Source: Desulfatiglandales bacterium (GTDB lineage: Bacteria > Desulfobacterota > DSM-4660 > Desulfatiglandales > Desulfatiglandaceae). From it: 64,000 nt of DNA. Made by a program: the position numbers and the translations under genes. Shown here in pieces: positions 8,922-25,735 of this stretch (position 1 is its first letter; each line of letters opens with the position of its first letter). The stretch is taken from the NCBI GenBank assembly GCA_963666345.1, contig OY762721.1, positions 2,880,001 through 2,944,000 of the forward strand, written 5' to 3'. The notes beneath the pieces are model-generated. The model ran no database searches and was not told where the DNA came from. It saw only the letters and a list, made by a program, of their open reading frames with translations.

Positions 8922-10502
8922 TCAGTCATCAAGCAGTAGCAGGGGAATCCAGGGCATATCTTTATTATCCGGTTTATCCTTGAAAAAGGCCTTTATGTTG
9001 ACATTGGTGTTACCATAGTAGTCGGTTACATCCTCGAAATCACTTCCATTGTAACTTATAAAGCTTTCTCCGGGATTTGCGCTTGTTACCGCATAGCCGC
9101 CTATGGGTCTTTCAATAGGGATAGGGGTTTTGTTTTCTTCTCCTGGGGGGTCTGTGAATTTTATCACCACGCAAAACGGATCATTTCCCGATACCTCTAC
9201 CGGTGCCGGCAGCAGGACCGTATAGTAGCCCCTGTATTCAACCTGACCGGATACGGCGGTACCCAGCAGAGGGTCTGAAAAATGAACATCAGGGGAGACT
9301 CCCGTCATGGTATCATATATCTGTATCTCATAGTCCATCCCTGATGTGGGGGCATAAAGGCCTATTCCGGTAATGGTTCCGTCCGCCGCCGGGGTAAAAC
9401 GATTCGCGCCCCAGCCGTCCCTCTGAGTGCCATAGCCGATGGTACCGGTCCATCCCAGGGGATCGTACTGAAGTATGCTGTCGAATGAAAGGAGGGAGTC
9501 ATCAGTGTCTTGATAATAGCCAAGCGATGTGAACCCTATACTCTCATCGTAATAAGACACGTAAAAGTAGCCGTCCTCCCCCCATGCGTCTCCCCAGGAA
9601 TTTCTGACTATAAAGGCGCCCGGCTGGGAGGCGCCCGTAACCTTATCATCGTCCCAGCCCACGATGGTGACGCAGTGGTTGGAGTTATTGAAGGAATCGG
9701 TCGGATCATCGTAATAAAAGGTATGGTCTGTTTCGTTGAAATTTCCCTCAGACCATTCTATTGAAGTATGAAGCGCCCCATGCCCGGAAATTGCATCCTT
9801 TATATAGTCGATGCTTGAGGCCGGGTCTGAGCGTACCGGCAGGAAAACTCCATTGTCTATGTATCGAGTAGGATCGCAGCCGGTACAATAGGAGGTGTCC
9901 GTGCAGGCCTCGGCGTCATATGGATCATCCGTCTCCATTACTGGGCCCGCATACCTTGCAAAATAGGCCAAACCCATTTCCATGTTACCGCCGTCATCCG
10001 GGCCGTATGCGAATCCATGGGCGCGGCTCAGATGCTTTTCGGAATAATCGTTTGAATTATCTGAAAGGCCGAACTCGGCCTTAAGGTGGCTTTCCACTAC
10101 ACCGTAGGTAGTAAATGCCCAGCAGGTATTACACTGCCCCTGATTCCTTACAGGCGTAAGGAGGCTGTCTGACGTGTCCCCGTCGCCATCTGGGTCCCTC
10201 ATGTCATATTCGGCGTCACCGGCTGAAGCCCCACACGGTGCGAGTCCCTCAATTTCAAGCTGTGTGTCGGGCTCATGAATTTCAGGTGCGATCGGGCCGG
10301 GTATGTATCCAAGGCCGAAACCGTTTTCAGCCGCCCCGTATGCCCTTAATAGAAGATCTTCCTCTTTCTGATGGAATGCCGTAAAGGCCGGGTTAACAGG
10401 GGCGAGCATTGATTCCGGCCTCTGGGCGCAGGCATTCTGTAAAGCCATCGGTGCTATGGTGCCTGAAATAAAGTAAAAGGCGCAAAGGATAATCAGTCTC
10501 AT
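8922..10502 (-). CDS. Secreted papain-family (C1A) cysteine protease with lectin-like C-terminal domain; tail MPWIPLLLLDD
   Basis: Signal peptide; VRNQGQCNTCWAF (catalytic Cys), NHCVTIVGWDD (His), RNSWG (Asn); QYDPLGW start of the accessory domain. Confidence 0.9.
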   Translation of the reverse strand: MRLIILCAFYFISGTIAPMALQNACAQRPESMLAPVNPAFTAFHQKEEDLLLRAYGAAENGFGLGYIPGPIAPEIHEPDTQLEIEGLAPCGASAGDAEYDMRDPDGDGDTSDSLLTPVRNQGQCNTCWAFTTYGVVESHLKAEFGLSDNSNDYSEKHLSRAHGFAYGPDDGGNMEMGLAYFARYAGPVMETDDPYDAEACTDTSYCTGCDPTRYIDNGVFLPVRSDPASSIDYIKDAISGHGALHTSIEWSEGNFNETDHTFYYDDPTDSFNNSNHCVTIVGWDDDKVTGASQPGAFIVRNSWGDAWGEDGYFYVSYYDESIGFTSLGYYQDTDDSLLSFDSILQYDPLGWTGTIGYGTQRDGWGANRFTPAADGTITGIGLYAPTSGMDYEIQIYDTMTGVSPDVHFSDPLLGTAVSGQVEYRGYYTVLLPAPVEVSGNDPFCVVIKFTDPPGEENKTPIPIERPIGGYAVTSANPGESFISYNGSDFEDVTDYYGNTNVNIKAFFKDKPDNKDMPWIPLLLLDD

Positions 10503-10578: not shown

Positions 10579-10920
10579 GGATCATCTCCCGATTAGTTGG
10601 TGTTAAACAGGGCTAAGCAATGAAATCCTTCTTATTTAAGCGGCTGAGAGCTAGTAGGGTTCAAGGATTCCAGTGTTCCATTGAAACGGCGGATAAAACC
10701 CCTAAAGCATTACAAAGATTTAAAGCTGTTGCAGAAATCCTGCGAATGCCTTTCAGGTATATAGAATAAATGAAAAATTCTCAAATAACATGAGGTACAC
10801 AGAGATCGATAAATTGCTAAAAATGCCTATAAAGTCTTTAGAAAACAAACACTTGACCCCTTGACCCCTTGACCCCTTGGGTCCTTGGACCCTCTTGGCC
10901 AACTAAGTTGGAGAAGGACC
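10579..10920 (+). mobile_element. MITE family A copy 2
   Basis: Same TIRs as copy 1; perfect 8-bp TSD aaaattta on both sides. Confidence 0.88.
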
Positions 10921-11324
10921 AAAATTTAAAATGCCTGTTATCGGATTTTCAGGTAAAGGAAAAAGGTATTTTGCGGAATAGTATAGACATTCCCTCAGAA
11001 TCTGTCACCACAGAAAATGTGAAATTTGTCTGTTTAGACCCCTGTCTGCCGTTTCTTAGGAAATCTTTATCCTGGTGGATATAGATATGGGCCACAAAAA
11101 AGAAAACGGGGCGGTCGTATGTCATTTAACCTGTCGATATATCAATAAAGAAAATTGGTGCTACCTGATTTTGTTAAGTGTTTTATAGGCATTAATTTGG
11201 TATATATTCCAAATTAATTTTAAAGAAGATAAAAGAGGTGCTGTTGACATTTAATGAAGAGTTGTGATACCTGATAATATCTCAAAATATTCATATAGTT
11301 TCCAGCATTTGGTTTTAATCACAC

Positions 11325-11400
11325 TGTGAAAAAGCCAAACCCCGAGCAATCGAGGGACGGAAAGCCACGGGTCTTGAAAAGACAGCCGGGTTGCCGAAAG
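11325..11400 (+). ncRNA. c-di-GMP-I (GEMM-I) riboswitch, copy 1
   Basis: GCCAAACC...GCAA tetraloop...GGGACGGAAAGCC.CGGGTCT...AGACAGCCGGGTTGCCG matches the GEMM-I consensus. Confidence 0.9.
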
Positions 11401-11419
11401 GTGGCCCGGCTTTTTGTTT
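11385..11419 (+). terminator. Riboswitch expression-platform terminator
   Basis: gccgggttgcc-gaaa-ggtggcccggc + tttttgttt; overlaps the aptamer 3' strand. Confidence 0.85.
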
Positions 11420-11972
11420 GTGCGCCCGGCAGGGCGCACTCACTTGGAGGTGAAAGTCCTCTACACGCCCGTCAGGGGGAAGTGTTAGCTGAACGGCAAC
11501 TGCGTCACCGTGAGGTGAGGTGGGGAGGAAGCTGAAGGCAAAGCGCTGGCCCGACGAACAGGAATCGCATATTAGGCGGTCATGCCGGATGAGGAGGCAA
11601 ATATCTCTAAAGTCCAATACCTGACCGGAAGGCATGGGCGTATATGCGGCGGGCATAAGCGTGAAGGTGGGTGTGCATTACCCGGGGAGACCTCATGGTA
11701 TGCCGTGAGTGCTACTTCTGCCGAGAGGCAGAGGGATGTGCCGTGAGGAGTCAGCCGAGGCCATAGTAGTCCAAACGACCATGGGTGAAGGGCCGAACCT
11801 TATGTTAACGACAGGGTCTTTAGCTGTGCGAGCGAGAGTAGACATAGAAGGTTATGCTGAGATGCATGGCGCTACAGGGAAGTGTACCGGGCGGAACCCG
11901 GGAGTGGTCTTTGGTAGTGTGTCAAAGCGCCCATTGGCGGAAGGGAACCCTGTTGACGAGCAAGCGCAACTG

Positions 11973-13235
11973 ATGGAGCGAGTGGTCGAACGCTCGAACA
12001 TGCAACAGGCCTATCGACGTGTGAAGGTAAATAGAGGAGCACCAGGAGTTGATGGTATGAGTACGGATCGTCTTGGTGCATATTTATGTAAACACTGGCC
12101 TGAGATCAAGCAACGATTGTGTAAGGGCAGTTACAAACCGATGCCAGTAAGGCGAGTACAGATTCCAAAGGCAAATGGTGGAGTCCGCCTACTTGGCATT
12201 CCAACTGTATTAGATAGACTTATTCAGCAGGCATTGCATCAGGTGTTGAGTCCATTGTATGAGCCGGGATTCTCGGAGCACAGCTATGGATTCCGTAAAG
12301 GTCGCAGTGCTCATCAGGCGGTGGTTGCAGAGCAGAAGTACCAGCATGAGGGCAAACGCTGGGTAGTTGATATGGACCTGGCGCAGTTTTTCGATGAAGT
12401 AAATCACGACAAACTGATGTCTCGATTAGGAGCGAAGGTCAGGGATCAGAGGGTAAAGGGTTTGATCCGTAGCTACCTTCGAGCTGGGGTGCTTCTGGGC
12501 GGAGTGGTGTCAGTTCAGAGCAAAGGAACGCCGCAAGGCGGTCCTATCTCTCCCCTGCTGTCCAACATTGTGCTGGATGAACTGGATAAGGAGTTGGAGA
12601 AGCGAGGCCATAGGTTCTGCCGCTATGCCGACGACTGCAATATCTACGTAGGCAGTCGTCGAAGCGGGGATCGTGTAATGGCGTCTGTGACACGTTTTGT
12701 TGAGGAGAGGCTGAAGCTGAGGGTAAACAGGCAAAAGAGTGCTGTAGCAAGGCCATGGCAGCGCAAATTTCTTGGTTATACGTTCAGCTGGCACAGGAAG
12801 AGTCGAATCCGTGCAGCCGCAGAATCGATAAAGCGGCTCAGAGCTAATTTGAAGGCGTTGTTCCGTAAGGGCAGGGGCCGCAATGTAAAGCGGTTTATCC
12901 AGGAGGAACTCAACCCTGTTGTCAGGGGATGGAGTAACTACTTCAGACTGTCGGAGTTTCTAGGATTTGCAAGGGAACTTGATCAGTGGGTTCGTCGTCA
13001 CCTTAGATGTATTCTATGGCGACAATGGAAGAGACCCTGGAAACGGTTTCAGATGCTTATGGATTTGGGACTGTCTGAGCAACAGGCCGCTTATTCTGCT
13101 TTTAATCAGAGAGGGGCATGGTTCAATGCAGGTGCAGCGCATATGAACCGGGCCATACCCAAACGTTACCTTGATCAGCTTGGACTAGTATCTACGCTCG
13201 ATACACTGCGCAGGCTTGGAGGAAAATTAACTTAA
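11973..13235 (+). CDS. ltrA: Group II intron reverse transcriptase/maturase, no endonuclease domain (start may be further upstream; frame open from 11709)
   Basis: GAPGVDG, RLLGIPTVLDRLIQQA, SYGFR, GTPQGGPISPLLSNI, RYADD, LNPVVRGWSNYF. Confidence 0.95.
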   Translation: MERVVERSNMQQAYRRVKVNRGAPGVDGMSTDRLGAYLCKHWPEIKQRLCKGSYKPMPVRRVQIPKANGGVRLLGIPTVLDRLIQQALHQVLSPLYEPGFSEHSYGFRKGRSAHQAVVAEQKYQHEGKRWVVDMDLAQFFDEVNHDKLMSRLGAKVRDQRVKGLIRSYLRAGVLLGGVVSVQSKGTPQGGPISPLLSNIVLDELDKELEKRGHRFCRYADDCNIYVGSRRSGDRVMASVTRFVEERLKLRVNRQKSAVARPWQRKFLGYTFSWHRKSRIRAAAESIKRLRANLKALFRKGRGRNVKRFIQEELNPVVRGWSNYFRLSEFLGFARELDQWVRRHLRCILWRQWKRPWKRFQMLMDLGLSEQQAAYSAFNQRGAWFNAGAAHMNRAIPKRYLDQLGLVSTLDTLRRLGGKLT

Positions 13236-13297
13236 GGAACCGCCGTGGTACGTGGACCGTATGCCCGGTGGTGTGAGCTTACTATTACCCATAAGTA

Positions 13298-14743
13298 TCA
13301 TAGCTGATCCGCCAGTTTCAAGCCTTCACTCAGATCTGCAAGACGCTTCCATCCTCTCCATAATGTGATAGTACCAGGAGGCCCATCGTTTTTTCGGGCT
13401 AGGTGACCTCCTAGTTTTGCAATCCAGATGACTACAATACCAATGGTTGGTGGCTTTTTCGGTATAGGTTTGTTTATATTTGCATGCAGGAAAAGGGCTT
13501 TCCACTCCTGATCGGTAAGGAAAGTTGAGCAGGGTGTTGTCGGATCGGTACGAGCGATCAAGGTAATCATGAAGATCCTCCAAGCTACAATGCTCATAAC
13601 TGTGAGGTATTTTGCCAGCCGATCGGCATGCCCTAGCCGACATGATTCGACCCTAAAACCGGACTTTAAGACCTTGAAGTACATTTCAATTCGCCAGCGT
13701 AAGCAGTACCACAAAACTTTTTCATAAGCATCTTCATACGACATGACTGGAAGATTGGTCAGGAGCATCCACTCGATAGCTTCCTCGCTATCAGGCGGAT
13801 TTGTTTCTATAACATAGACTGCGTGCATCTCAATGTCTGGAAGTTTCTCAGTGCTGTGCCTGATACTATTGCGGGGAGGATTGAGGGTAAAAGAGCCGAA
13901 ACGTACAGAGACCATCGCGGTGCGTGCTTCCCTTTCTTTGGCATGCTTCGACTTAGACCTTTTCGCGATTTCTACCACGTAAGAACCTGAATCAGGCTGT
14001 TTTCGCATATTCTCCCAAAGTTTTTCGACATTCTTTTCTGCATAACGGGATTTACGATTTATAATCCTATCTACGTTTGCTCGAACGAGGACAGGGGCAT
14101 TGATTTGATGGCTACGCATAAAGAAATCGTATAGATCGGCTTCTCGATCGCAGACTGTGACGATTCGGGTACAACCTGTTAATTCCTTAGTGTTTTCTAA
14201 TGCCTCAAGCCATCTATAGCTTTCCTTTTCCTCTATCGGGAGATTGGCGTGAGGTTTTGCTTTTTTGTTATCCTTTTTCCGGAGTTTCCGTGAAAATATT
14301 TTTTGATCCAACAGTCCGAGTGGGAGGCCTTTAGTTGTTACAGCCAGACATGTATGCATTATCAGGCCGTTGGAATAGATATTTTTCACGTTTTTACCCT
14401 TCTTTAAAGACATCTTCCCGAGTCCTTCGGTCTTCGGATGGTCAGTATAGACAAAATAACTGGTATCTTGGAGTGCAAGAACCGTTTTGTGTTCCTTAGT
14501 ACGCTGAGCTGTTTTACATCGGTGGGCCGCCAACATCTTACCAACCTCAACTTTGTTGTTTTGAAAAAAACGATAAGCAGCTTTGGTCTCTGCCCAATCC
14601 ACGCATGCTTGGTTGATGGGGCTCTCTGGAGCATCCGAAAATCTATCACACAGCTTAATCAGCCTTGCATCGAGTCTTTTATCTCCGAGCTTGACCTCTG
14701 CAAACTCTTCCGCCGCCCAACTTGATCTATTTTTTGGGTTCAT
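13298..14743 (-). CDS. IS4-family DDE transposase
   Basis: WAAEEF..LGDKRL, QDTS, VCDREAD, YCLRWRIEMYFKVLKSG (YREK), GPPG..LWRGW. Confidence 0.95.
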   Translation of the reverse strand: MNPKNRSSWAAEEFAEVKLGDKRLDARLIKLCDRFSDAPESPINQACVDWAETKAAYRFFQNNKVEVGKMLAAHRCKTAQRTKEHKTVLALQDTSYFVYTDHPKTEGLGKMSLKKGKNVKNIYSNGLIMHTCLAVTTKGLPLGLLDQKIFSRKLRKKDNKKAKPHANLPIEEKESYRWLEALENTKELTGCTRIVTVCDREADLYDFFMRSHQINAPVLVRANVDRIINRKSRYAEKNVEKLWENMRKQPDSGSYVVEIAKRSKSKHAKEREARTAMVSVRFGSFTLNPPRNSIRHSTEKLPDIEMHAVYVIETNPPDSEEAIEWMLLTNLPVMSYEDAYEKVLWYCLRWRIEMYFKVLKSGFRVESCRLGHADRLAKYLTVMSIVAWRIFMITLIARTDPTTPCSTFLTDQEWKALFLHANINKPIPKKPPTIGIVVIWIAKLGGHLARKNDGPPGTITLWRGWKRLADLSEGLKLADQL

Positions 14744-14824
14744 TGAACGCCTCCCATTAAAAGTTGACATTTGTATAGTAGACGTATTATATACGTCTAC
14801 TATTACGATAGGGAGGTGTCAAGG

Positions 14825-15136
14825 ATGAATCCTGTCAAAAAACGAAATGATCTTTTAAAAAAATTAGCCCAATTCCCTGAATTTGTTCGCGGGTCGATTA
14901 CAAGCGTTTGTTCCACATGCAACAGAGCGAGATGCATATGCTCAAAAAAGTCATCCCGGATGGCATATCGGCTGACCTATAAGGATAGCCAACAAAAAAC
15001 ACGTAGCGTTTATGTTAAAAGAGACCAGTTAACCAGAATGCGAAAGATGATCGCCAATTATGCCCGACTAAGGAAACTGATCGAGCAACTTGTTGAGGCA
15101 AATATTGAGGCTTTTAAGGAAGAAACTCGGCGATAA
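14825..15136 (+). CDS. Small IS passenger protein, Cys-cluster (DUF6788-like)
   Basis: RBS gggagg; RGSITSVCSTCNRARCIC; lies inside the IS TIRs, divergent from the transposase. Confidence 0.7.
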   Translation: MNPVKKRNDLLKKLAQFPEFVRGSITSVCSTCNRARCICSKKSSRMAYRLTYKDSQQKTRSVYVKRDQLTRMRKMIANYARLRKLIEQLVEANIEAFKEETRR

Positions 15137-15403
15137 AATCGTCTAGACTTATGGGTAATAGTAAGGTGGTGTGAGAGAGGGAGGTCGCGAGGCCTCCCCC
15201 TACTCGATTGTGCTTTGGAGATGTATGTTTTTCGAATAACGCTGAATCACCTTTAACAAAACGGATTAATCCAAGGCAAATAACGGCGTATATAATAGGT
15301 CTCTAATGCTAATAGGCATAAAACAGCAATACAGAGTGGATGTTTGGATCTAACTGAATCGAAGGACTAATCCACTGGCATGCCAGTGGCATGAATCGGG
15401 AGA

Positions 15404-18400
15404 TTGAAAATGGTACGTGTTAGGAAATGGATGCTGTTATCACTTTCAGCCGTAATTTTGTTCTCTCTAGTGTTCTATGTGAATGCTGAACCTGTAGCGG
15501 AAAAAATGGCTCAGAGCGCAGCGCAGTCTTTCCTTCATAAAGAGCAGAGAACTCTGCCCAAAATGGTGACTAAGGCAAAGGCTGAGCATTTTGTCAGCGA
15601 TATGGCTAGTGGTCTTACTATTGGAGAGCTTCATCCTATAAAAGATAGCCATGGTGAAATACTTGCATATATTCAGGAACTGGAACCTGAGGGATTCATC
15701 ATTACTTCAGCCGATGATAGCATAAGGCCGGTTCTTGGTTTTTCGTTCTCAGGAGAATTCTCTTATGATGCACACAATCCATTGCTTAATCTTATAAAGA
15801 CAGATACCAAAACCCGCCTAAGACTTTTGTCTTATGGTGGGGAAAAGGCGCAAAATATGATTAAGTTGAGCGGAGAACAATGGATAGCCGATACTTCATA
15901 TACGTTAGAACTGGACACATCCCTACTTTCAAAGTCAATCTCAACCCTGTCAGAGACTATATGGGGTGACGAAAACGGTTACATTCAGACAGAATGGAAT
16001 CAAAGAAATCCCTGGAACGCACAATGCCCATATAAAGTCGAAGACGATATCGGTGGCTCTAGACGACCTGTTGGGTGTGTAGCAACGGCAACAGCACAGA
16101 TAATAAACTTCTGGGAATACCCAAAGAGTGTGTCAATTTCTGATAATGACTATATAAATATAGATGGCACATCGCACTACATAAGTACATCTTCAGGTTA
16201 CGGGCTACCATCAGTGTCAGAACTTAGAAGCGAAATGGGATCACTCCTTTATGGAGCTCCCGATACTGATGAACAAGCTTATTTGTGTCTTACCGCAGGG
16301 CTTAAACTTCATATGAACTACAGATCTAAAACAACTCAGCATGGCGGTATTGAATACGGCTCTGCAGCTAGTACCTCAAGTGTTGGAGAAGTCCTCACGA
16401 GCAATTTTTTGTATGGAAGTGCCGATATGGATAAATGGGGTAATGTTTGGTCGGAAAATTACAGCACAATTGTTGATAATATGAAAAATGCTCAGCCTGT
16501 TCAAATCGGAATCAAGAATTCAGGAAAGACAGGCGGGCATTCCGTAATCGTAGATGGATATCGTGAGGGGGACCATTTTTTTCATGTAAATTTCGGTTGG
16601 TCAGATTCTGGTAATTCTAATACATGGTACAATATTCCAAACTTTGAGCCACAACCATATTGGGAGGATTATTATTATGATGTAGTGCACACCGTTGTAT
16701 TCAATATTGCCAAATACCAGGGGTGGAACCAATATGGTGCAAATGCACAAAATACATTTGGAACTATCTATGCGGCACCATATAAGAAAAACGAAATCAA
16801 ACAGAAATGGCGTGCTACCTGCCCATCTGAATTTGCCTTCAGGCATATCGCGATCGGAACTTCCAATCATATTTATGCCGCTGTTTCCCCTAACGCTTCT
16901 ACCGGCCACTCGTTTATATATGTAATAGATCAATTTGGTACTAAATTAAAAGAAATCGAAATAAATCGGGACGGCAAAATTGATTTTATGTGCCAAGATG
17001 AAGCCGGAGACCTATTTGTAGCAGTTGAGGATGGATACATCTATCGAGTTGATCCAGAAACAAGTTCAGCAGTTCAGATTTTTGAAGAACCTTATGGGGG
17101 ACAAATCAATACGCTCAAGATTGATAAAGATGGTTGGCTTTTCGCTGTTACGTTTGATCGCGTTTATGCCCTTACACGGTCTGGCACCTCTCGTTGGCCC
17201 TCCCCATTTGTCGTACCGTCAGGATCAATGTTCATGGGGAGTCGGTCGATTCCAGCGATTGACGTGTCCCGGCAGCGAATTTATGCTACTTACTACAACA
17301 GCACCACGGATCATGCTTACCTCGTGGCGATAAATAGGCTAAACGGGGAGATCGTGCAGGTACGAGATTTTGCGGCAATATCAGTGCCACTTATGAAAGT
17401 TCCTTCCATTGGCCCTGATGGTACGGTCTACATCGGTATGCCAGGCATACTATATGCTTTGAATCCGGATGATTTTCTTGGCACTCCTAAATGGACAAAG
17501 TCACTGCTTATTAGCCATACGCCTGCGGTAGGCCGCGATGGTACTTTATATTTCCCTTACTGGGAGCAAATTGCCGATATATGGTACAATAAATTGGGCG
17601 CTTTTGATCCATCAAATTGTGCGGAGCGATGGAGCATACCATTTCAACTAGACACCTCAGAAGAGTCTATATTCCAACCCTATATCGGCGGTAACGGTGT
17701 TGTTCTTTTCACAATAGAGCACGACGGATCACCTAAAACATACACTCTGCATGGATACAAGGACAACGGCTCAAGCTCTGAGGAACTATGGGATTACAAT
17801 GCAGGAAGCTCTGGAGGTAACTATGCATTCGGCCCTGGTCGGACAGTGTATGCATGGGGAATGACAGGTTTGGCGAAAACAATCTATGCGCTTACCGATG
17901 GGGAAATTGGTGACCCCTACGGAGCAGGGATGGATTTTGAGAACAATAATACTCCTATTCCTGCATCTAATCCGAGCCCTGCAGATGGTGCCGTGGAGCA
18001 ATCCTTCACAAGTGTTCAACTTTCGTGGAGTTGCTCTGATCCTGATGGGCATGATCTGAAATATGATATTTATGGCTGTGCCTTAGTGGAGGGAGAAGAA
18101 GCGGCTATGGTGCCTCTGGTAACTCAGTTAACTGAAAATTCATACACTTTGTCGAATTTGCAAGGAGGAACGGAATATCTTTGGATGGTCGTTGCTACTG
18201 ACGGGCAGGCCATTGCAGAAGGACCTACATGGAGTTTTACAACAGAAATAGAAGATTTATGCCCCGATGATCCAAACAAAACAGAACCCGGGATATGCGG
18301 CTGTGGAGTACCAGATACAGATACAGACGGAGATGAAACGGCCGACTGTATAGATGCCTTTCCAAGTGATCCAACTGAATGGGCTGATAACGATAATGAT

Positions 18401-18616
18401 AATATAGGCGACAATGCTGATACAGACGATGATGATGATGGTATGCCCGATGTATGGGAAGAACAATATGAAGGTCTGAATCCCCTCGTAGATGATGCTT
18501 CCGATGATCTGGATGGTGATGGAATCCTAAATCTAACAGAATACCAGAATGGAACAGATCCCGCTCGGTTTAATTCGAAGTATCTGCCCTTTATACCATT
18601 ACTTTTGGGGGATTAG
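15404..18616 (+). CDS. Secreted streptopain-family (C10) cysteine protease with propeptide, PQQ-like beta-propeller, FN3-like domain and Asp-rich TSP3-like stalk; tail LPFIPLLLGD
   Basis: Signal peptide; GFIITSADD..PVLGFS (Spi/propeptide-like), WNQRNPWN, VGCVATATAQI, GHSVIVDGY, HVNFGW; PSIGPDGTVY propeller repeats; DxDxD repeats. Confidence 0.88.
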   Translation: MKMVRVRKWMLLSLSAVILFSLVFYVNAEPVAEKMAQSAAQSFLHKEQRTLPKMVTKAKAEHFVSDMASGLTIGELHPIKDSHGEILAYIQELEPEGFIITSADDSIRPVLGFSFSGEFSYDAHNPLLNLIKTDTKTRLRLLSYGGEKAQNMIKLSGEQWIADTSYTLELDTSLLSKSISTLSETIWGDENGYIQTEWNQRNPWNAQCPYKVEDDIGGSRRPVGCVATATAQIINFWEYPKSVSISDNDYINIDGTSHYISTSSGYGLPSVSELRSEMGSLLYGAPDTDEQAYLCLTAGLKLHMNYRSKTTQHGGIEYGSAASTSSVGEVLTSNFLYGSADMDKWGNVWSENYSTIVDNMKNAQPVQIGIKNSGKTGGHSVIVDGYREGDHFFHVNFGWSDSGNSNTWYNIPNFEPQPYWEDYYYDVVHTVVFNIAKYQGWNQYGANAQNTFGTIYAAPYKKNEIKQKWRATCPSEFAFRHIAIGTSNHIYAAVSPNASTGHSFIYVIDQFGTKLKEIEINRDGKIDFMCQDEAGDLFVAVEDGYIYRVDPETSSAVQIFEEPYGGQINTLKIDKDGWLFAVTFDRVYALTRSGTSRWPSPFVVPSGSMFMGSRSIPAIDVSRQRIYATYYNSTTDHAYLVAINRLNGEIVQVRDFAAISVPLMKVPSIGPDGTVYIGMPGILYALNPDDFLGTPKWTKSLLISHTPAVGRDGTLYFPYWEQIADIWYNKLGAFDPSNCAERWSIPFQLDTSEESIFQPYIGGNGVVLFTIEHDGSPKTYTLHGYKDNGSSSEELWDYNAGSSGGNYAFGPGRTVYAWGMTGLAKTIYALTDGEIGDPYGAGMDFENNNTPIPASNPSPADGAVEQSFTSVQLSWSCSDPDGHDLKYDIYGCALVEGEEAAMVPLVTQLTENSYTLSNLQGGTEYLWMVVATDGQAIAEGPTWSFTTEIEDLCPDDPNKTEPGICGCGVPDTDTDGDETADCIDAFPSDPTEWADNDNDNIGDNADTDDDDDGMPDVWEEQYEGLNPLVDDASDDLDGDGILNLTEYQNGTDPARFNSKYLPFIPLLLGD

Positions 18617-19960: not shown

Positions 19961-20050
19961 TGTGAAAAAGCCAAACCCCGAGTGATCGAGGGATGGAAAG
20001 CCACGGGTCTTAAATAGACAGCCGGGTTGCCGAGAGGTGGCCCGGCTGTC
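19961..20050 (+). ncRNA. c-di-GMP-I (GEMM-I) riboswitch, copy 2
   Basis: Near-identical to 11325-11410: gccaaaccccga-gtga-tcgagggatggaaagccacgggtct...agacagccgggttgccg. Confidence 0.85.
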
Positions 20051-20310
20051 TGTTGCTCAATGCCATATCTTTAATTTCTTAATAGTATCGATTCAATGCT
20101 TTAGCGGTTTTATCCGCCGTTTCAATGGAGCACTTGAATCCTTGGCCCCTTGAAACCGGGAACCCGCTGCGAAGCAGTGGGACTGAGCGAAGCGCAAGCG
20201 GAGCAAAGAAACCGGGAACCCGCTGCGAAGCAGTGGGACTGAGCGAAGCTAAGCTAAGCGAGGGCGAAGAATCCTACGAGTTATCAGCCGCTTAAATAAT
20301 AAAGATTTCT

Positions 20311-21346: not shown

Positions 21347-24300
21347 TTGCGCAAGTATACCGTTTATCTCTGTCTTGCTATGTTGATGCTGCTGTTTGGG
21401 GCGGAAATCGTTTTTGCCGCCCTGAAAAGCGCTGAAACAAGTGTTCCGGGCCAAAAGGCTGTGATAGTGGCCGGCACGGAGGCGAGCGTACTCATCCGTT
21501 CGCCTGAGACAGAGCATCTGTTTGACGCAAGCGACACCGAAAGCACCGGGGTCATAATCATTCAACCCGGTCCCGCAGCTGCGCCCGGAGATTCCTTACC
21601 AGGTGAAGACTATGCATTGTGGGACTGGAGTGGTTCGATATCTATTCCTGACGGTCCGGACGGTTCGTGGGTAGGCGTCAACAACACACCGACATCGCCG
21701 CCCGATGGGTGCCAGGTAACGAAAATCACAATTCGCCACGCGGTGACCCACACCTATATCGGTGATTTGGAGTGCAAGGTATATAACGACAGCGGGCACT
21801 CATGGATGGTTCGTGACAATGAAGGGGTCTCTGCGGATGACTTTGATGAGACCGAGACTGAATACACGATCTTTGACGGGGATAATCCCAAACAGAACTG
21901 GTCCTATAGTGTTCGCGACACGGTCGAAGACGATACTGGTACCCTCGATATCGTGCAGCTATATGTTTACTATGAAACCACGGAGCCGGACATCCGAGTT
22001 GAGCCCACGACGCTCAATTTTAACGACAACCCTGAGCCCTCCATCTCTTCGTTCAAGTCGACACTTGCTCCGCTGGAGTTTGCAGCTACGGCAAGCGACG
22101 GTTCTCTGTCTGTAACCATCGAAAGCGGCGCCTTGAACATAAACCCCGCCGGTGATTATGTGGCCTTAAGCATGGATGGCTATGATACGCGCATGTCGCC
22201 CGGCGATCCCATGCTCCCTTTGCGTGTCGTGCGTATGGCCCTGCCGCCGGACGCCGATCTCGATACGGTGACTGTCTCCCATTCAGTCCTTGCCGCAAGA
22301 GTACTGGACTCTACCTATTCGGTTGCCCCTGCACCTCCTATGGCGACATGGGAGGGAACCCAGACGATCATCGATTGGGGCGAGGGCAAGGACATCGTCG
22401 ACGGCCGCAACATGAACGTCTACGGCTCGGACGCCTTTTTCGTGGCCGAATCCGTCAAACCCGAGCCTTACAGCCGGTTGCGTAAATGGAAGATGGCCCG
22501 GTTTTTCTTTTATCCTGTCCAATATAACCCGGTCACCGGCAAACTGCGCGTTATCGATAGTGTCAAGGTCGATATTACGTACGACCTTGAGTCCGAAGCT
22601 AAAAGTGCGCTGAACTCCTCGTCGGCAGATGACGGCATGGAAGCCGCGGCTTCCCTACTCATCGATAACTATGACCAGGCCAAGCCCTGGTACCTCTATG
22701 AAGCTAAACTAAGCCCATCGGTTGCTTACGATTACGTCATCGTAACCACCGAGGACATTTTCGATAACGCTTCTTACCTCGATGACTTTGAGACCTTTAA
22801 GGAGAACCAGGGTTATAACGTGGCGACTGTCACAGAAAGCGGTTTCTACACATCGGTCGGTGGTTCGAGCAGTGACTCGGGCTGGGGCGGAGGCACGGGC
22901 GATGCGGCGGCCGAGAACATTCGATCCTGGCTCCAGGGCAACTACTTATCCCTGGGAATCGACTATGTCCTGCTTATTGGCGATCCAAGCCCCGCCTCCG
23001 GGGACGTGCCGATGAAAATGTGCTGGCCGCGTAAGGGTGCTACGATCGAACCGGACTATGATGAAGCGCCCACGGATTACTATTATGCTGAACTTACCGG
23101 AAACTGGGATCTGGATGGCGACGGAGATTATGGGGAATACGACGGCGATTTCGGCTCGGGTGGCATCGACACGAATGTGGAAATCTATGTCGGCCGCATT
23201 CCCGTTTACTCCTCATCCATGACCGCCCTCGACGGCATCTTGCAGAAGACCATAGACTATGGAACCGAGTCAGGTGATCTTGGCTGGCGTGAAAAGGTTC
23301 TGCTTCCCATGGAGCCGTCCGATTCGTCAACTCACGGCTGGCCCCTGGCCGAAAACATCCGCAGCGACTACGCCAATCCGGCGGGTTGGGATTCCTATCG
23401 CATCTATGATGAGGATTACGACAAGAGCCCAGAGCAAACGCCGTGCAACATGACCAACGTCCAAAACGAATGGCAGAACTTCTACGGGCTTGTTACATGG
23501 TGGACACACGGCTCGGAGACCAGCGCTGCAGACGTCTTTAGCAGCAGCCTGTGCGGCAATCTCGATGACGATCATCCAGCCTTCACGTTCCAGTGCTCAT
23601 GCAACAACGGCTATCCTGAAAATACCGGCAATCTCGGCTACTCGTTGCTCGAAAACGGTGCCATCGGAACGATTTCCGCAACACGCGTTTCGTGGTACTA
23701 CGTAGGCGACTCAAACTGGGAAATGAGTGGCGGCAACTCGTACATGGCCGACAGGTACTCGGAAAAGATCATCAACACGGATCGATCCGGTAAGGCCCTC
23801 TTCGATATGAAGATGGCAGCATCTCACAGTGATATGGACCAATGGATGAATTTTCTGGTTTTTAATCTCTACGGCGATCCCGCTCTGAAAATTGACGACA
23901 CCGGCGGCTCGACTCCACCCGGAGATGGTGAATTCGGGATCTACAACGACGGAACGGATACGCTTGAAGTCAGCAGCATTACTAAAAGCAAGAGCTGGCT
24001 GCTCCTTGATACCGCAGGACCTCTTACGATCTCAGAGGGCGAAAACCATATTGTTTCTGCTTCGGTGGATTGGGACCAGGTTCCGGCAGGAGGGGATTCC
24101 GATACCATTCAGGTCAATTCAAACGATCCTGACGAGGGGACGGTCAACGTCGCCGTGACTGCTATTCAGCCTCGCAGTTTATCGGTCTCATCGAGCAGCG
24201 GCGGCTTGGTTTCACAGCCTGGCGAAGGTTATTTTGAATACACATTGGGGGCTGTAGTCTCTCTTGTGGTATTGGCAGATTCTGACTGGCACTTTGACCG

Positions 24301-25735
24301 GTGGACAGGGACTGCGGTTGATGCGGGCAGGGTAGGGGACCCGGATTCCGGGGCTACGACGGTCACGATGGATGGTGACTATACCCTTTATGCAAACTTT
24401 GCCATTGATCAGCATGAGCTGCAGATATCGTCAAGCGCAGGGGGATCGGTTACGACGCCGGGTGAGGGCGAGCTGCATTACGATCACGGGACAGTGGTAA
24501 CGATTGAGGCGACAGGTGATGCCAACTTTCATTTTGTAAACTGGACGGGAACGGCGGTTGACGCGGGCAGGGTAGGGGATGCGGATTCCGGGGCTACGAC
24601 GGTCACGATGGATGGTGACTATACGCTTTATGCGAACTTTGCCATTGATCAGCACGCGCTGCAGATATCGTCAAGCGCAGGGGGATCGGTTACGACGCCG
24701 GGTGAGGGCGAGCTGCATTACGATCACGGGACAGTGGTAACGATTGAGGCGACAGGTGATGCCAACTTTCATTTTGTAAACTGGACGGGAACGGCGGTTG
24801 ACGCGGGCAGGGTAGGGGATGCGGATTCCGGGGCTACGACGGTCACGATGGATGGTGACTATACGCTTTATGCGAACTTTGCCATTGATCAGCACGAGTT
24901 GCAGATATCGTCAAGCGCAGGGGGATCGGTTACGACGCCGGGTGAGGGCGAGCTGCATTACGATCACGGGACAGTGGTAACGATTGGGGCGGCATCTGAT
25001 GCCGATTTTCATTTTGTAAACTGGACGGGAACGGCGGTTGACGCGGGCAGGGTAGGGGATGCGGATTCCGGGGCTACGACGGTCACGATGGATGGTGACT
25101 ATACGCTTTATGCGAACTTTGCCATTGATCAGCACGAGTTGCAGATATCGTCAAGCGCAGGGGGATCTGTTACGACGCCGGGTGAGGGCGAGCTGCATTA
25201 CGATCACGGGACAGTGGTAACGATTGAGGTGGCATCTGATGCCAATTTTCATTTTGTAAACTGGACGGGAACGGCGGTTGACGCGGGCAGGGTAGGGAAC
25301 CCGGATTCCGGGGCTACGACGGTTACGATGGATGGTGACTATACCCTTTATGCGAATTTTGCCATCGATGATGAAGATGAAGACGGCGTTCCGGATTTAA
25401 CTGATAATTGCCCGGTGACACCGAATTCGGATCAAGCGGACTCTGATGGAGATGAGGTCGGGGATGCCTGCGATCAATGCCCTGATGATTCCAACAAGAG
25501 TAATCCAGGCGTTTGTGGATGTGGAGAACCTGATACTGACAGCGAACCTGATGGAATGGTTGATTGCTGGGAATGGGAATACGGTCTTGATCCTTCAGTG
25601 AATGACGCTGGAGAAGATATTGATGGGGATGGATTTTCAAACCTCATAGAATTTCAGCGAGGAACAGATCCCGGTGATTATTATTCTACCCCTCCAATCG
25701 TTATGCCCTGGATACCACTGCTTTTGGGTGATTAG
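21347..25735 (+). CDS. Secreted gingipain-family (C25) cysteine protease with P-domain, C25 propeptide, five InlB-B-like repeats and TSP3-like stalk; tail MPWIPLLLGD
   Basis: Signal peptide; HTYIGDL (proprotein convertase P-domain), PGDPMLP and YPVQYNPVTGKL (propeptide), YVLLIGD, TDYYYA, VGRIP, THG (His), CSC (Cys), NLYGDP. Confidence 0.88.
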   Translation: MRKYTVYLCLAMLMLLFGAEIVFAALKSAETSVPGQKAVIVAGTEASVLIRSPETEHLFDASDTESTGVIIIQPGPAAAPGDSLPGEDYALWDWSGSISIPDGPDGSWVGVNNTPTSPPDGCQVTKITIRHAVTHTYIGDLECKVYNDSGHSWMVRDNEGVSADDFDETETEYTIFDGDNPKQNWSYSVRDTVEDDTGTLDIVQLYVYYETTEPDIRVEPTTLNFNDNPEPSISSFKSTLAPLEFAATASDGSLSVTIESGALNINPAGDYVALSMDGYDTRMSPGDPMLPLRVVRMALPPDADLDTVTVSHSVLAARVLDSTYSVAPAPPMATWEGTQTIIDWGEGKDIVDGRNMNVYGSDAFFVAESVKPEPYSRLRKWKMARFFFYPVQYNPVTGKLRVIDSVKVDITYDLESEAKSALNSSSADDGMEAAASLLIDNYDQAKPWYLYEAKLSPSVAYDYVIVTTEDIFDNASYLDDFETFKENQGYNVATVTESGFYTSVGGSSSDSGWGGGTGDAAAENIRSWLQGNYLSLGIDYVLLIGDPSPASGDVPMKMCWPRKGATIEPDYDEAPTDYYYAELTGNWDLDGDGDYGEYDGDFGSGGIDTNVEIYVGRIPVYSSSMTALDGILQKTIDYGTESGDLGWREKVLLPMEPSDSSTHGWPLAENIRSDYANPAGWDSYRIYDEDYDKSPEQTPCNMTNVQNEWQNFYGLVTWWTHGSETSAADVFSSSLCGNLDDDHPAFTFQCSCNNGYPENTGNLGYSLLENGAIGTISATRVSWYYVGDSNWEMSGGNSYMADRYSEKIINTDRSGKALFDMKMAASHSDMDQWMNFLVFNLYGDPALKIDDTGGSTPPGDGEFGIYNDGTDTLEVSSITKSKSWLLLDTAGPLTISEGENHIVSASVDWDQVPAGGDSDTIQVNSNDPDEGTVNVAVTAIQPRSLSVSSSSGGLVSQPGEGYFEYTLGAVVSLVVLADSDWHFDRWTGTAVDAGRVGDPDSGATTVTMDGDYTLYANFAIDQHELQISSSAGGSVTTPGEGELHYDHGTVVTIEATGDANFHFVNWTGTAVDAGRVGDADSGATTVTMDGDYTLYANFAIDQHALQISSSAGGSVTTPGEGELHYDHGTVVTIEATGDANFHFVNWTGTAVDAGRVGDADSGATTVTMDGDYTLYANFAIDQHELQISSSAGGSVTTPGEGELHYDHGTVVTIGAASDADFHFVNWTGTAVDAGRVGDADSGATTVTMDGDYTLYANFAIDQHELQISSSAGGSVTTPGEGELHYDHGTVVTIEVASDANFHFVNWTGTAVDAGRVGNPDSGATTVTMDGDYTLYANFAIDDEDEDGVPDLTDNCPVTPNSDQADSDGDEVGDACDQCPDDSNKSNPGVCGCGEPDTDSEPDGMVDCWEWEYGLDPSVNDAGEDIDGDGFSNLIEFQRGTDPGDYYSTPPIVMPWIPLLLGD
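24173..25372 (+). repeat. Five tandem 240-bp (80-aa) coding repeats
   Basis: Units start at 24173, 24413, 24653, 24893 and 25133; units 2-5 nearly identical at DNA level (HELQISSSAGGSVTTPGEG...YTLYANFAID). Confidence 0.95.

Follow-up and report, generated by a model that had tools for sequence, protein, structure and literature searches.

A group IIC intron directly behind a riboswitch terminator, split between domains V and VI by an insertion sequence: a probable case of opportunistic retrohoming

What is to be made of a self-splicing type of intron that begins directly behind the terminator of a riboswitch? The question is raised by a 64,000-nucleotide stretch of the genome of a Desulfatiglandales bacterium (GenBank assembly GCA_963666345.1, contig OY762721.1, positions 2,880,001 to 2,944,000 of the forward strand), referred to here as the window. 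In it, a group IIC intron follows a c-di-GMP-I-GGC riboswitch (cyclic di-GMP class I, GGC variant) that stands before the gene of a secreted C10 cysteine protease. Taken together, the structural and comparative data suggest two answers. The locus is, with high probability, best explained by opportunistic retrohoming of a IIC intron behind a riboswitch terminator, the intron later being disabled by an insertion sequence (IS). That IS, in turn, probably specialises in parasitising group II introns: it appears to recognise the DNA at the junction of domains V and VI (D5 and D6), severing the catalytic from the branch-site domain, so that one structure-guided targeting event would be nested in another. 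The elements on which these proposals turn are as follows.

11325..11399, plus strand: c-di-GMP-I-GGC riboswitch aptamer (rs1), Rfam RF03167
11384..11419, plus strand: intrinsic terminator forming the expression platform of rs1, from a terminator scan and fold
11417..11419, plus strand: intron-binding site 1 (IBS1, UUU), the final three bases of the 5' exon, which pairs with exon-binding site 1
11420..13277, plus strand: 5' portion of the group IIC intron (D1 to D5 and the first bases of J5/6 and D6), from its GTGCG start, Rfam and alignment
11599..11601, plus strand: exon-binding site 1 (EBS1, AAA) in a domain I loop, from covariation with the 5' exon
11973..13235, plus strand: intron-encoded reverse transcriptase (RT)/maturase of 420 aa, from translation, Pfam and TIGR04416
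13239..13272, plus strand: D5, 34 nt, from its bulged-hairpin fold and alignment with D5 of uninterrupted relatives
about 15172..15208, plus strand: D6, with a bulged A at 15202, from fold and alignment to relatives
15209..15403, plus strand: 3' exon, the rest of the protease mRNA leader, from sequence
15404..18616, plus strand: secreted cysteine protease gene (Inhibitor_I69, Peptidase_C10, fn3), from Pfam and the list of open reading frames (ORFs)

The rs1 aptamer scores 70.2 bits with the full Rfam model (positions 1-80), for which the gathering score is 59. Its terminator consists of a 12-bp GC-rich hairpin, AGCCGGGTTGCC-GAAA-GGTGGCCCGGCT, at 11384-11411, followed by the U-tract TTTTGTTT up to 11419; the energy of the hairpin (-26.2 kcal/mol, z -4.6) was equalled by none of 200 shuffled sequences. 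The Rfam alignment and the letters of the sequence place the whole 5' arm of this hairpin (11384-11395) inside the aptamer, where it takes in all 7 nt of the 3' strand of P2 and part of P1. The expression platform competes with the aptamer: as the arm is shared, aptamer and terminator are mutually exclusive, and read-through into the intron should depend on ligand. The minimum-energy fold of the unliganded RNA contains the terminator. This architecture would be that of a transcriptional ON switch, in which ligand binding should favour read-through; SAM-I (S-adenosylmethionine) riboswitches, in contrast, are usually OFF switches. Variants of the c-di-GMP-I class such as GGC were reportedly introduced by Weinberg et al. 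in PNAS in 2017. The ligand of the GGC variant is not stated in the available portions of PMC5737381 or PMC7266159.

The intron begins at 11420 with GTGCGCCCGGCA, its GTGCG directly after the U-tract, and can be aligned to the introns of relatives from base 1 or 2. Two Rfam ribozyme models match it, RF02001 at 11504-11676 (141 bits) and RF01998 at 11712-11793 (65 bits). The RT reading frame (11709-13235) is intact and retains YADD; translation most likely begins with the ATG at 11973 (MERVVERSNMQQAYRRV...). Pfam assigns it RVT_1 and GIIM domains, with the endonuclease domain absent, and it passes the TIGR04416 cut-off with 411 bits. By a wide margin the nearest solved structure is the GsI-IIC RT 6ar1 (3e-134 over the full length), followed by the group II intron RT/maturase 7uim (2e-109), which we take to be the E. 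rectale IIC RT; the IIA protein LtrA (2e-41) and 6me0 (6e-38), presumably a class IIB maturase RT, match much more weakly. No other RT homologue is encoded in the genome. At the far end, the bulged A of D6 lies 7 nt before the 3' splice site and the intron closes with ...CTACTCGAT at 15208, relatives ending in CTACTCGAT or CTACCCGAT. Freed of the IS, the intron would measure 1891 nt; 35 relatives span 1865-1946 nt.

By these features the intron is a bacterial class C (IIC) group II intron, the class of the RT being assigned from its closest solved relatives and its domains. RT type, position behind a stem-loop and a short IBS1-EBS1 pairing of 3-4 bp all agree with it. The contiguous D5 and D6 expected of the class are not found: the D1-D4 models match and both helices are there, 1898 nt apart. 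As D5 and D6 are separated and the D5-D6 model RF00029 finds no match, the intron is a disrupted member of the class. The characterised IIC introns B.h.I1, GsI-IIC and that of E. rectale (PMC1702495; 6ar1, 7uim; PMC10190682) share with it an endonuclease-less RT, insertion a few nucleotides behind a terminator stem-loop, the 3-4-bp IBS1-EBS1 pairing and a length of about 1.9 kb. It differs from them in having a conditional (riboswitch) terminator as its target and a ribozyme interrupted between D5 and D6, and its RT is only 52-64% identical to the best database relatives. A sequence-only reading made earlier had placed a IIC intron against the riboswitch terminator, in a feature that it ended at 13277. 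Placement and class are confirmed by the aptamer (11325-11399), the hairpin (11384-11411) and GTGCG at 11420, and by an endonuclease-less RT closest to that of GsI-IIC, the EBS1-IBS1 pairing and the position behind a hairpin; 13277 is exactly the left border of the inserted IS (13278-15165). The exon junction that it predicted, ttgttt joined to tgtgct, is right in its letters, with the 3' exon (TGTGCT) starting at 15209 and not at 15215.

Within the 5' end of the intron, the CCCGGC of GTGCGCCCGGCA (11425-11430) repeats the terminator 3' arm (11405-11410) and is complementary to the conserved GCCGGG of the aptamer (11385-11390). The first helix of the intron could compete for this aptamer strand.

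Why does the intron stand at this site? A IIC target consists of a DNA stem-loop and, about 8-10 nt beyond it, roughly 3 nt of IBS1. Both parts can be followed among the relatives. A scan of one genome per species yielded 601 relatives; 79 loci from many phyla (RT identity 52-64%) were retained, and in 76 of these the 5' part of the intron was matched. Of the 76, 46 had a 5' end located to within 4 nt and no fewer than 50 nt of sequence before it; a GC-rich stem-loop closes a few nucleotides before the intron in 45 of them, the exception being locus L083, and about three quarters of those with a stem-loop also have a T-run (by eye). In an alignment of 47 introns, EBS1 is complementary to the exon in 98%, 100% and 91% of cases at exon positions -1, -2 and -3, with many compensatory changes between EBS1 and IBS1 (for example GGG/CCC and CGA/TCG). 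The same alignment holds no convincing column for EBS3, the best column reaching 81%. Given the class of the intron and the pairing of its EBS1 with the exon UUU, the intron occupies a site matching its own exon-binding sequence.

The genome itself supplies the comparison states. It is a single 4.16-Mb contig (C1), on which the following relatives of the intron and of its riboswitch are found.

C1:1142888-1143079, minus strand: 5' intron remnant behind a gene-end terminator
19961..20035 of the window, plus strand: paralogous riboswitch rs2, the intron-free comparison state, RF03167 at 66.7 bits, upstream of a C25 peptidase gene
C1:3583691-3583765: paralogous riboswitch rs3, RF03167, its hairpin followed by TGTAGCTGTTT

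The remnant, a decayed 5' fragment about 90% identical to the window intron and starting at C1:1143079 on the minus strand, lies behind an ordinary gene-end terminator, and its exon tail is that of the window intron: CTTTTTGTTT followed by GTGCG. Two further matches to GTGCGCCCGGCA (C1:1001350 and 3625007) were rejected as chance, one of them lying within an apparent tRNA 3' end. A loose scan of the genome finds 17 sites with a hairpin and TTTTTGTTT, and two of these carry this intron. The riboswitches rs2 and rs3 form a hairpin as in rs1 with different tails, and both are without an intron; in rs2 the hairpin is followed by TGTCTGTTGCTC, with no TTT at homing distance.

A published case has the same geometry. 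Sherlock et al. (2022, RNA Biol 19:1059, PMC9481103, in its accessible part) describe a IIC intron behind a SAM-I aptamer and dismiss the pair as a false tandem, the terminator stem being uninterrupted and IIC introns inserting beside terminators. That locus, like the window, has an uninterrupted riboswitch terminator stem directly before a IIC intron; the window differs in its riboswitch class, c-di-GMP-I-GGC, in the protease gene downstream and in the IS that splits the intron. The junction agrees with what IIC targeting predicts and, given the second copy at an ordinary terminator with the same tail and this published case, needs no function.

The simplest account would be ordinary IIC retrohoming into a hairpin that offered the right IBS1. 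In this proposal, a IIC intron retrohomed into the terminator that serves as c-di-GMP-I-GGC expression platform before the secreted C10 protease gene, and its placement would be a by-product of target choice, not evidence of a regulatory device. With the terminator left intact, the riboswitch would still decide on read-through by the polymerase, and ligand-dependent transcription of the intron and its RT would be a plausible passive consequence.

The intron did not remain whole. An IS lies exactly between D5 and D6, as judged by alignment with uninterrupted relatives in which the two are contiguous.

13278..15165, no strand assigned: IS4-family insertion sequence of 1888 bp, from inverted repeats and duplication
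13268..13277, plus strand: left copy of the target-site duplication, GTGGTGTGAG, from sequence
15166..15175, plus strand: right copy of the duplication, from sequence
13298..14770, minus strand: IS4/Tn5-type DDE transposase of 490 aa, from Pfam and NF033590
14771..15136, plus strand: second ORF of the IS (DUF6788), Pfam PF20586 at 3.8e-16

The IS has perfect 19-bp inverted repeats and a 10-bp target-site duplication, GTGGTGTGAG. Its transposase carries the Pfam domains Tnp_DNA_bind, DDE_Tnp_1 and Dimer_Tnp_Tn5 and matches NF033590 at 444 bits; the DUF6788 ORF, with a likely start at the ATG at 14825, points towards the protease gene. The family assignment agrees with the IS4/Tn5-type DDE transposase, with the inverted repeats and with a duplication that measures 10 bp in two of the three genomic copies and 9 bp in the third, target duplications of 9-12 bp being the IS4-family range. 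The two further copies show no difference from this one over 1888 bp, and identity at all positions indicates that the insertions are recent.

D5 and D6 are now separated by the 1898 nt of IS and duplication. The D5-D6 model RF00029 has no match in the window even at E<=5, and it matches 20 of 40 relatives' loci. The linker between D5 and D6 of group II introns is short and length-sensitive, for which reason normal splicing is expected to be lost. As judged from ribozyme architecture, the later insertion of the IS most probably ended both normal splicing and mobility.

Is the position of the IS itself an accident? The other insertions of this element and its relatives suggest a preference.

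C1:3105727-3107614, opposite orientation relative to the intron: IS copy with duplication GTGGTGTGGG, in a 5'-truncated intron remnant
C1:3787537-3789424: IS copy with the 9-bp duplication GTTCTTAGG; an RF00029 match of 50 bits lies directly at the IS border
Locus L147 (genome G055, contig C40): IS copy, 83% identical, separating D5 from D6 in an intron with an RT of 52% identity to that of the window
Locus L148 (genome G024, contig C669): IS end with D6 directly after it
Loci L149 and L151 (genome G068): two IS ends; behind them lie the halves, oppositely oriented, of an element found uninterrupted elsewhere in G068

Both other copies in the genome of the window likewise lie between a D5 and a D6. 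The target element in G068 reads as a D5 with a 2-nt bulge and then a D6 with a bulged A (helices by eye); Rfam finds no match on three uninterrupted copies of it, which makes these two sites probable rather than certain. In total, the IS stands at a D5/D6 junction in all seven insertion sites examined, five firm and two probable, a small sample drawn from four genomes of a single bacterial order. Five relatives, and one further place in the genome of the window, hold D5-D6 units of this type without an insertion, so the IS inserted into a target that was already there. The duplicated target sequences differ (GTGGTGTGRG, GATCTGTGCG and GTTCTTAGG) and both orientations are used, which suggests that the IS probably recognises the two-hairpin structure and not a sequence. 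The proposed history would thus hold nested layers: a riboswitch terminator hairpin hit by a IIC intron, and the D5/D6 hairpins of that intron hit in turn by an IS.

Within its own genome, the IS is carried by the only RT-encoding intron and by two intron remnants. Beyond it, the 13-mer of the IS end gives only chance matches in 401 genomes of the phylum, the 16-mer only chance matches among viral contigs, and the transposase at E<=1e-120 is found among 209 genomes of the class only in this genome and in G055. Beside distant plasmid IS4 relatives (at most 42% identity), no annotated intron RT was seen at the two inspected. A literature search found no paper describing an IS specific for group II D5/D6; its matches concern introns that target IS elements, of which RmInt1 is an example (PMC4496777). 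The closest likeness is to IS elements that target repetitive extragenic palindromic (REP) elements, where a DDE-type IS likewise lies reproducibly in small palindromic, hairpin-forming DNA (Tobes and Pareja 2006, PMC1525189, in the portion available). The target of the window IS differs from theirs in being the D5/D6 hairpin junction, the catalytic core of another mobile element.

Outside the window copy, the genome holds only fragments of the intron: one 5' remnant and several D5-D6 remnants, at C1:3102607-3102690 (plus strand) and, in two parts, at about 3105680-3105726 and 3107615-3107660. One remnant directly adjoins a 93%-identical fragment of the same IS (IS positions 191-453). Just upstream of the D5-D6 remnant that carries the copy at C1:3105727-3107614 lies an ORF (C1:3105055-3105543, plus strand) with the motif KYHIVWCPKYR, presumably that of an IS200/IS605 TnpA.

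With intron and IS in place, the riboswitch lies 3.8 kb farther from its gene. Does the riboswitch still control the protease? The intron lies in the 5' untranslated region (UTR), and the protease gene has its own GGGAG before the ATG at 15410, so splicing is not required for translation: the protease should be translatable with or without it. The double insertion might then be functionally silent, unspliced read-through with a leader of about 4 kb preserving riboswitch control. Terminator and aptamer are indeed untouched, and on the plus strand there is one weak terminator-like site in the IS (13785-13798, 5-bp stem) and another in the RT gene. Against this stand the 3.8 kb of RNA that would be largely untranslated or antisense to the transposase gene, and such RNA would invite Rho-dependent termination and decay. 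The outward DUF6788 ORF could moreover supply transcription independent of the riboswitch, though a simple scan of 15209..15403 found no sigma-70-like promoter on the plus strand. On balance we regard functional silence as rather unlikely, and keep to an insertion that was opportunistic and was later disabled.

The alternative of a co-opted device, in which ligand controls expression of the intron and its RT as well as splicing, and splicing is needed for a functional protease leader, was the proposal of the sequence-only reading. Several observations speak for it, among them the recurrence of the junction in two metagenome contigs. Aptamer and 5'-exon hairpin share 12 nt, and the hairpin matters for exon ligation by a IIC intron in vitro: in the available part of PMC1702495, B.h.I1 lacking the terminator stem-loop gave no ligated exons, and an oligonucleotide that opens the stem led first-step products to accumulate. 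The precedent of a riboswitch-controlled self-splicing intron in C. difficile is also real: the c-di-GMP-II/group I system is, according to the accessible part of PMC9481103, the only known natural allosteric self-splicing ribozyme. Like the window, it has a cyclic-dinucleotide-class aptamer immediately before a self-splicing type of intron in a 5' UTR. The C. difficile aptamer, however, has no terminator of its own, its ligand selecting the 5' splice site (PMC9481103, same part). In the window, by contrast, a complete terminator stands between aptamer and ribozyme, the intron belongs to the mobile group II elements, and relatives do not share the arrangement.

The proposed coupling would also work against itself. 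The 5'-exon hairpin is missing when the aptamer has bound its ligand, so that, unless the RNA refolds once transcribed, one state would favour transcription of the intron and the other ligation of its exons. Ligand-gated splicing, if real, would probably be inhibitory. As a weaker addition to our preferred history, intron expression before the arrival of the IS may have been ligand-inducible, while the bound aptamer withheld the exon hairpin needed for ligation. The conditional terminator of the sequence-only reading stands as far as ligand-dependent read-through is expected from the shared 5' arm, with c-di-GMP as a putative ligand of the GGC variant. Its proposal that splicing restores the leader of the C10 protease is weakened, because a 5' UTR intron need not be spliced for translation and the ribozyme is now split.

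Conservation does not favour a device either. The same intron also stands behind an ordinary terminator, and Rfam finds a riboswitch upstream of the intron in none of 40 relatives' loci. Other upstream RNAs in these loci are a tRNA about 95 nt upstream in one (L012, 758-841) and, directly upstream in another, an Acido-Lenti-1 RNA motif on the opposite strand (L048, 901-945, minus strand). Across 151 genomes of the order, RF03167 has 263 matches in 95 genomes, and the first 12 bases of the intron have 69 matches in 48, many of them chance, since the reversed-pattern control is also frequent. The sole coincidence of the two, compared by eye for 150 listed of the 263 RF03167 matches, is this window. 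Nor does any of the 40 relatives, all of other genera, hold a DNA-level copy of the intron beyond short conserved pieces; the genus of the source is represented by this genome only. The genome counts about 403 strong terminator-like sites, one of them this riboswitch terminator, so that a single coincidence is compatible with random choice among terminators.

A survey for such junctions did bring up two more, both in metagenomes. A pattern of the aptamer 3' motif followed within 14-44 nt by the intron 12-mer retrieved 11 metagenome loci. Since this pattern demanded both elements, it has no denominator and says nothing on enrichment. Nothing points to selection for the junction. With the opposed control of transcription and ligation, the lack of conservation and the splitting of the intron by the IS, a co-opted device appears very improbable.

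Some observations nevertheless weigh against an origin by opportunistic retrohoming followed by loss of splicing. In two of the metagenome contigs, L107 (72.3 bits) and L112 (59.5 bits), an RF03167 aptamer and a terminator are followed by this same 5' end of the intron; the sequences of aptamer, hairpin and IBS1 are not those of the window, and the junction therefore arose more than once. As it recurs, this intron subclass may prefer these riboswitch hairpins. The prior for hitting a riboswitch terminator in a single genome is low (1 of about 403 sites), and the coordinate comparison covers 150 of the 263 RF03167 matches. Lastly, the target duplication leaves both the D5 and the D6 helix complete, and residual hydrolytic 5' cleavage, or even splicing, may persist.

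A mis-join of repeats at the riboswitch-intron or intron-IS junction is extremely unlikely: riboswitch and IS are both repeated in the genome and 11357-11459 is spanned by none of the listed short-read contigs, but the genome is assembled as a single 4.16-Mb contig, 11460-13306 is covered without difference, and across the intron-IS border, by contigs of runs X1 and X2 (which may be the source sample), the exon tail fits both the EBS1 of the intron and the site of its second copy, and a clean 10-bp duplication flanks the IS. Many relatives of the riboswitch occur in runs X1 and X2, which appear to be mixed samples. Among contigs of runs X1, X2, X9 and X3 on 10900-15700, none joins 11419-15209 or 13277-15176, and no empty-site or IS-less variant was seen.

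What the locus means follows from the target choice of the intron. IIC introns home to any terminator hairpin, those of riboswitches included, so an aptamer beside a self-splicing intron need not form an allosteric ribozyme with it. The C. difficile type is marked by an aptamer without its own terminator and by a conserved arrangement; the window has the terminator, and the 40 relatives' loci lack the arrangement, which two unrelated metagenome contigs carry. The locus may thus serve as a worked look-alike example for riboswitch and ribozyme searches. With three independent junctions, two of them in metagenome contigs, c-di-GMP-I-GGC would be a second riboswitch class beside the one published SAM-I case. 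It also exposes a conflict: the ligand state that would admit polymerase to the intron would dismantle the exon hairpin needed for IIC ligation in vitro. An IS that aims at D5/D6, if true, would represent a new target specificity for a DDE transposon and a possible mechanism by which introns of bacterial genomes become inactivated, and may matter more than the riboswitch/IIC junction.

The riboswitches of this genome share a type of downstream gene.

21347..25735 of the window, plus strand: C25 peptidase gene behind rs2, Pfam Peptidase_C25
C1:3583833-3586670: second C10 protease gene, behind rs3, from Pfam

All three c-di-GMP-I-GGC riboswitches in the genome precede secreted cysteine-protease genes (C10, C25 and C10), which supports rs1 as the original controller of the C10 gene; together they look like a riboswitch-controlled protease set. 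The leader between rs2 and the C25 gene (20060-21346) is about 1.3 kb long and has direct repeats with a unit of about 60 nt (gaaaccgggaacccgctgcgaagcagtgggactgagcgaagc...) around 20150-20260. Divergently upstream of rs1 lies a C1 papain-like peptidase with a lectin-like domain (8922-10502, minus strand).

Two further observations concern IIC introns elsewhere. In L070, two of them stand in tandem (689-860 and 2596-2769). In L115 (Ga0194125_10020396), a IIC intron stands behind a hairpin whose 5' arm, GACAGCCGGGTTGCC, resembles the aptamer 3' end; no riboswitch model scores above threshold upstream, and the resemblance may be due to chance or to decay of an aptamer.

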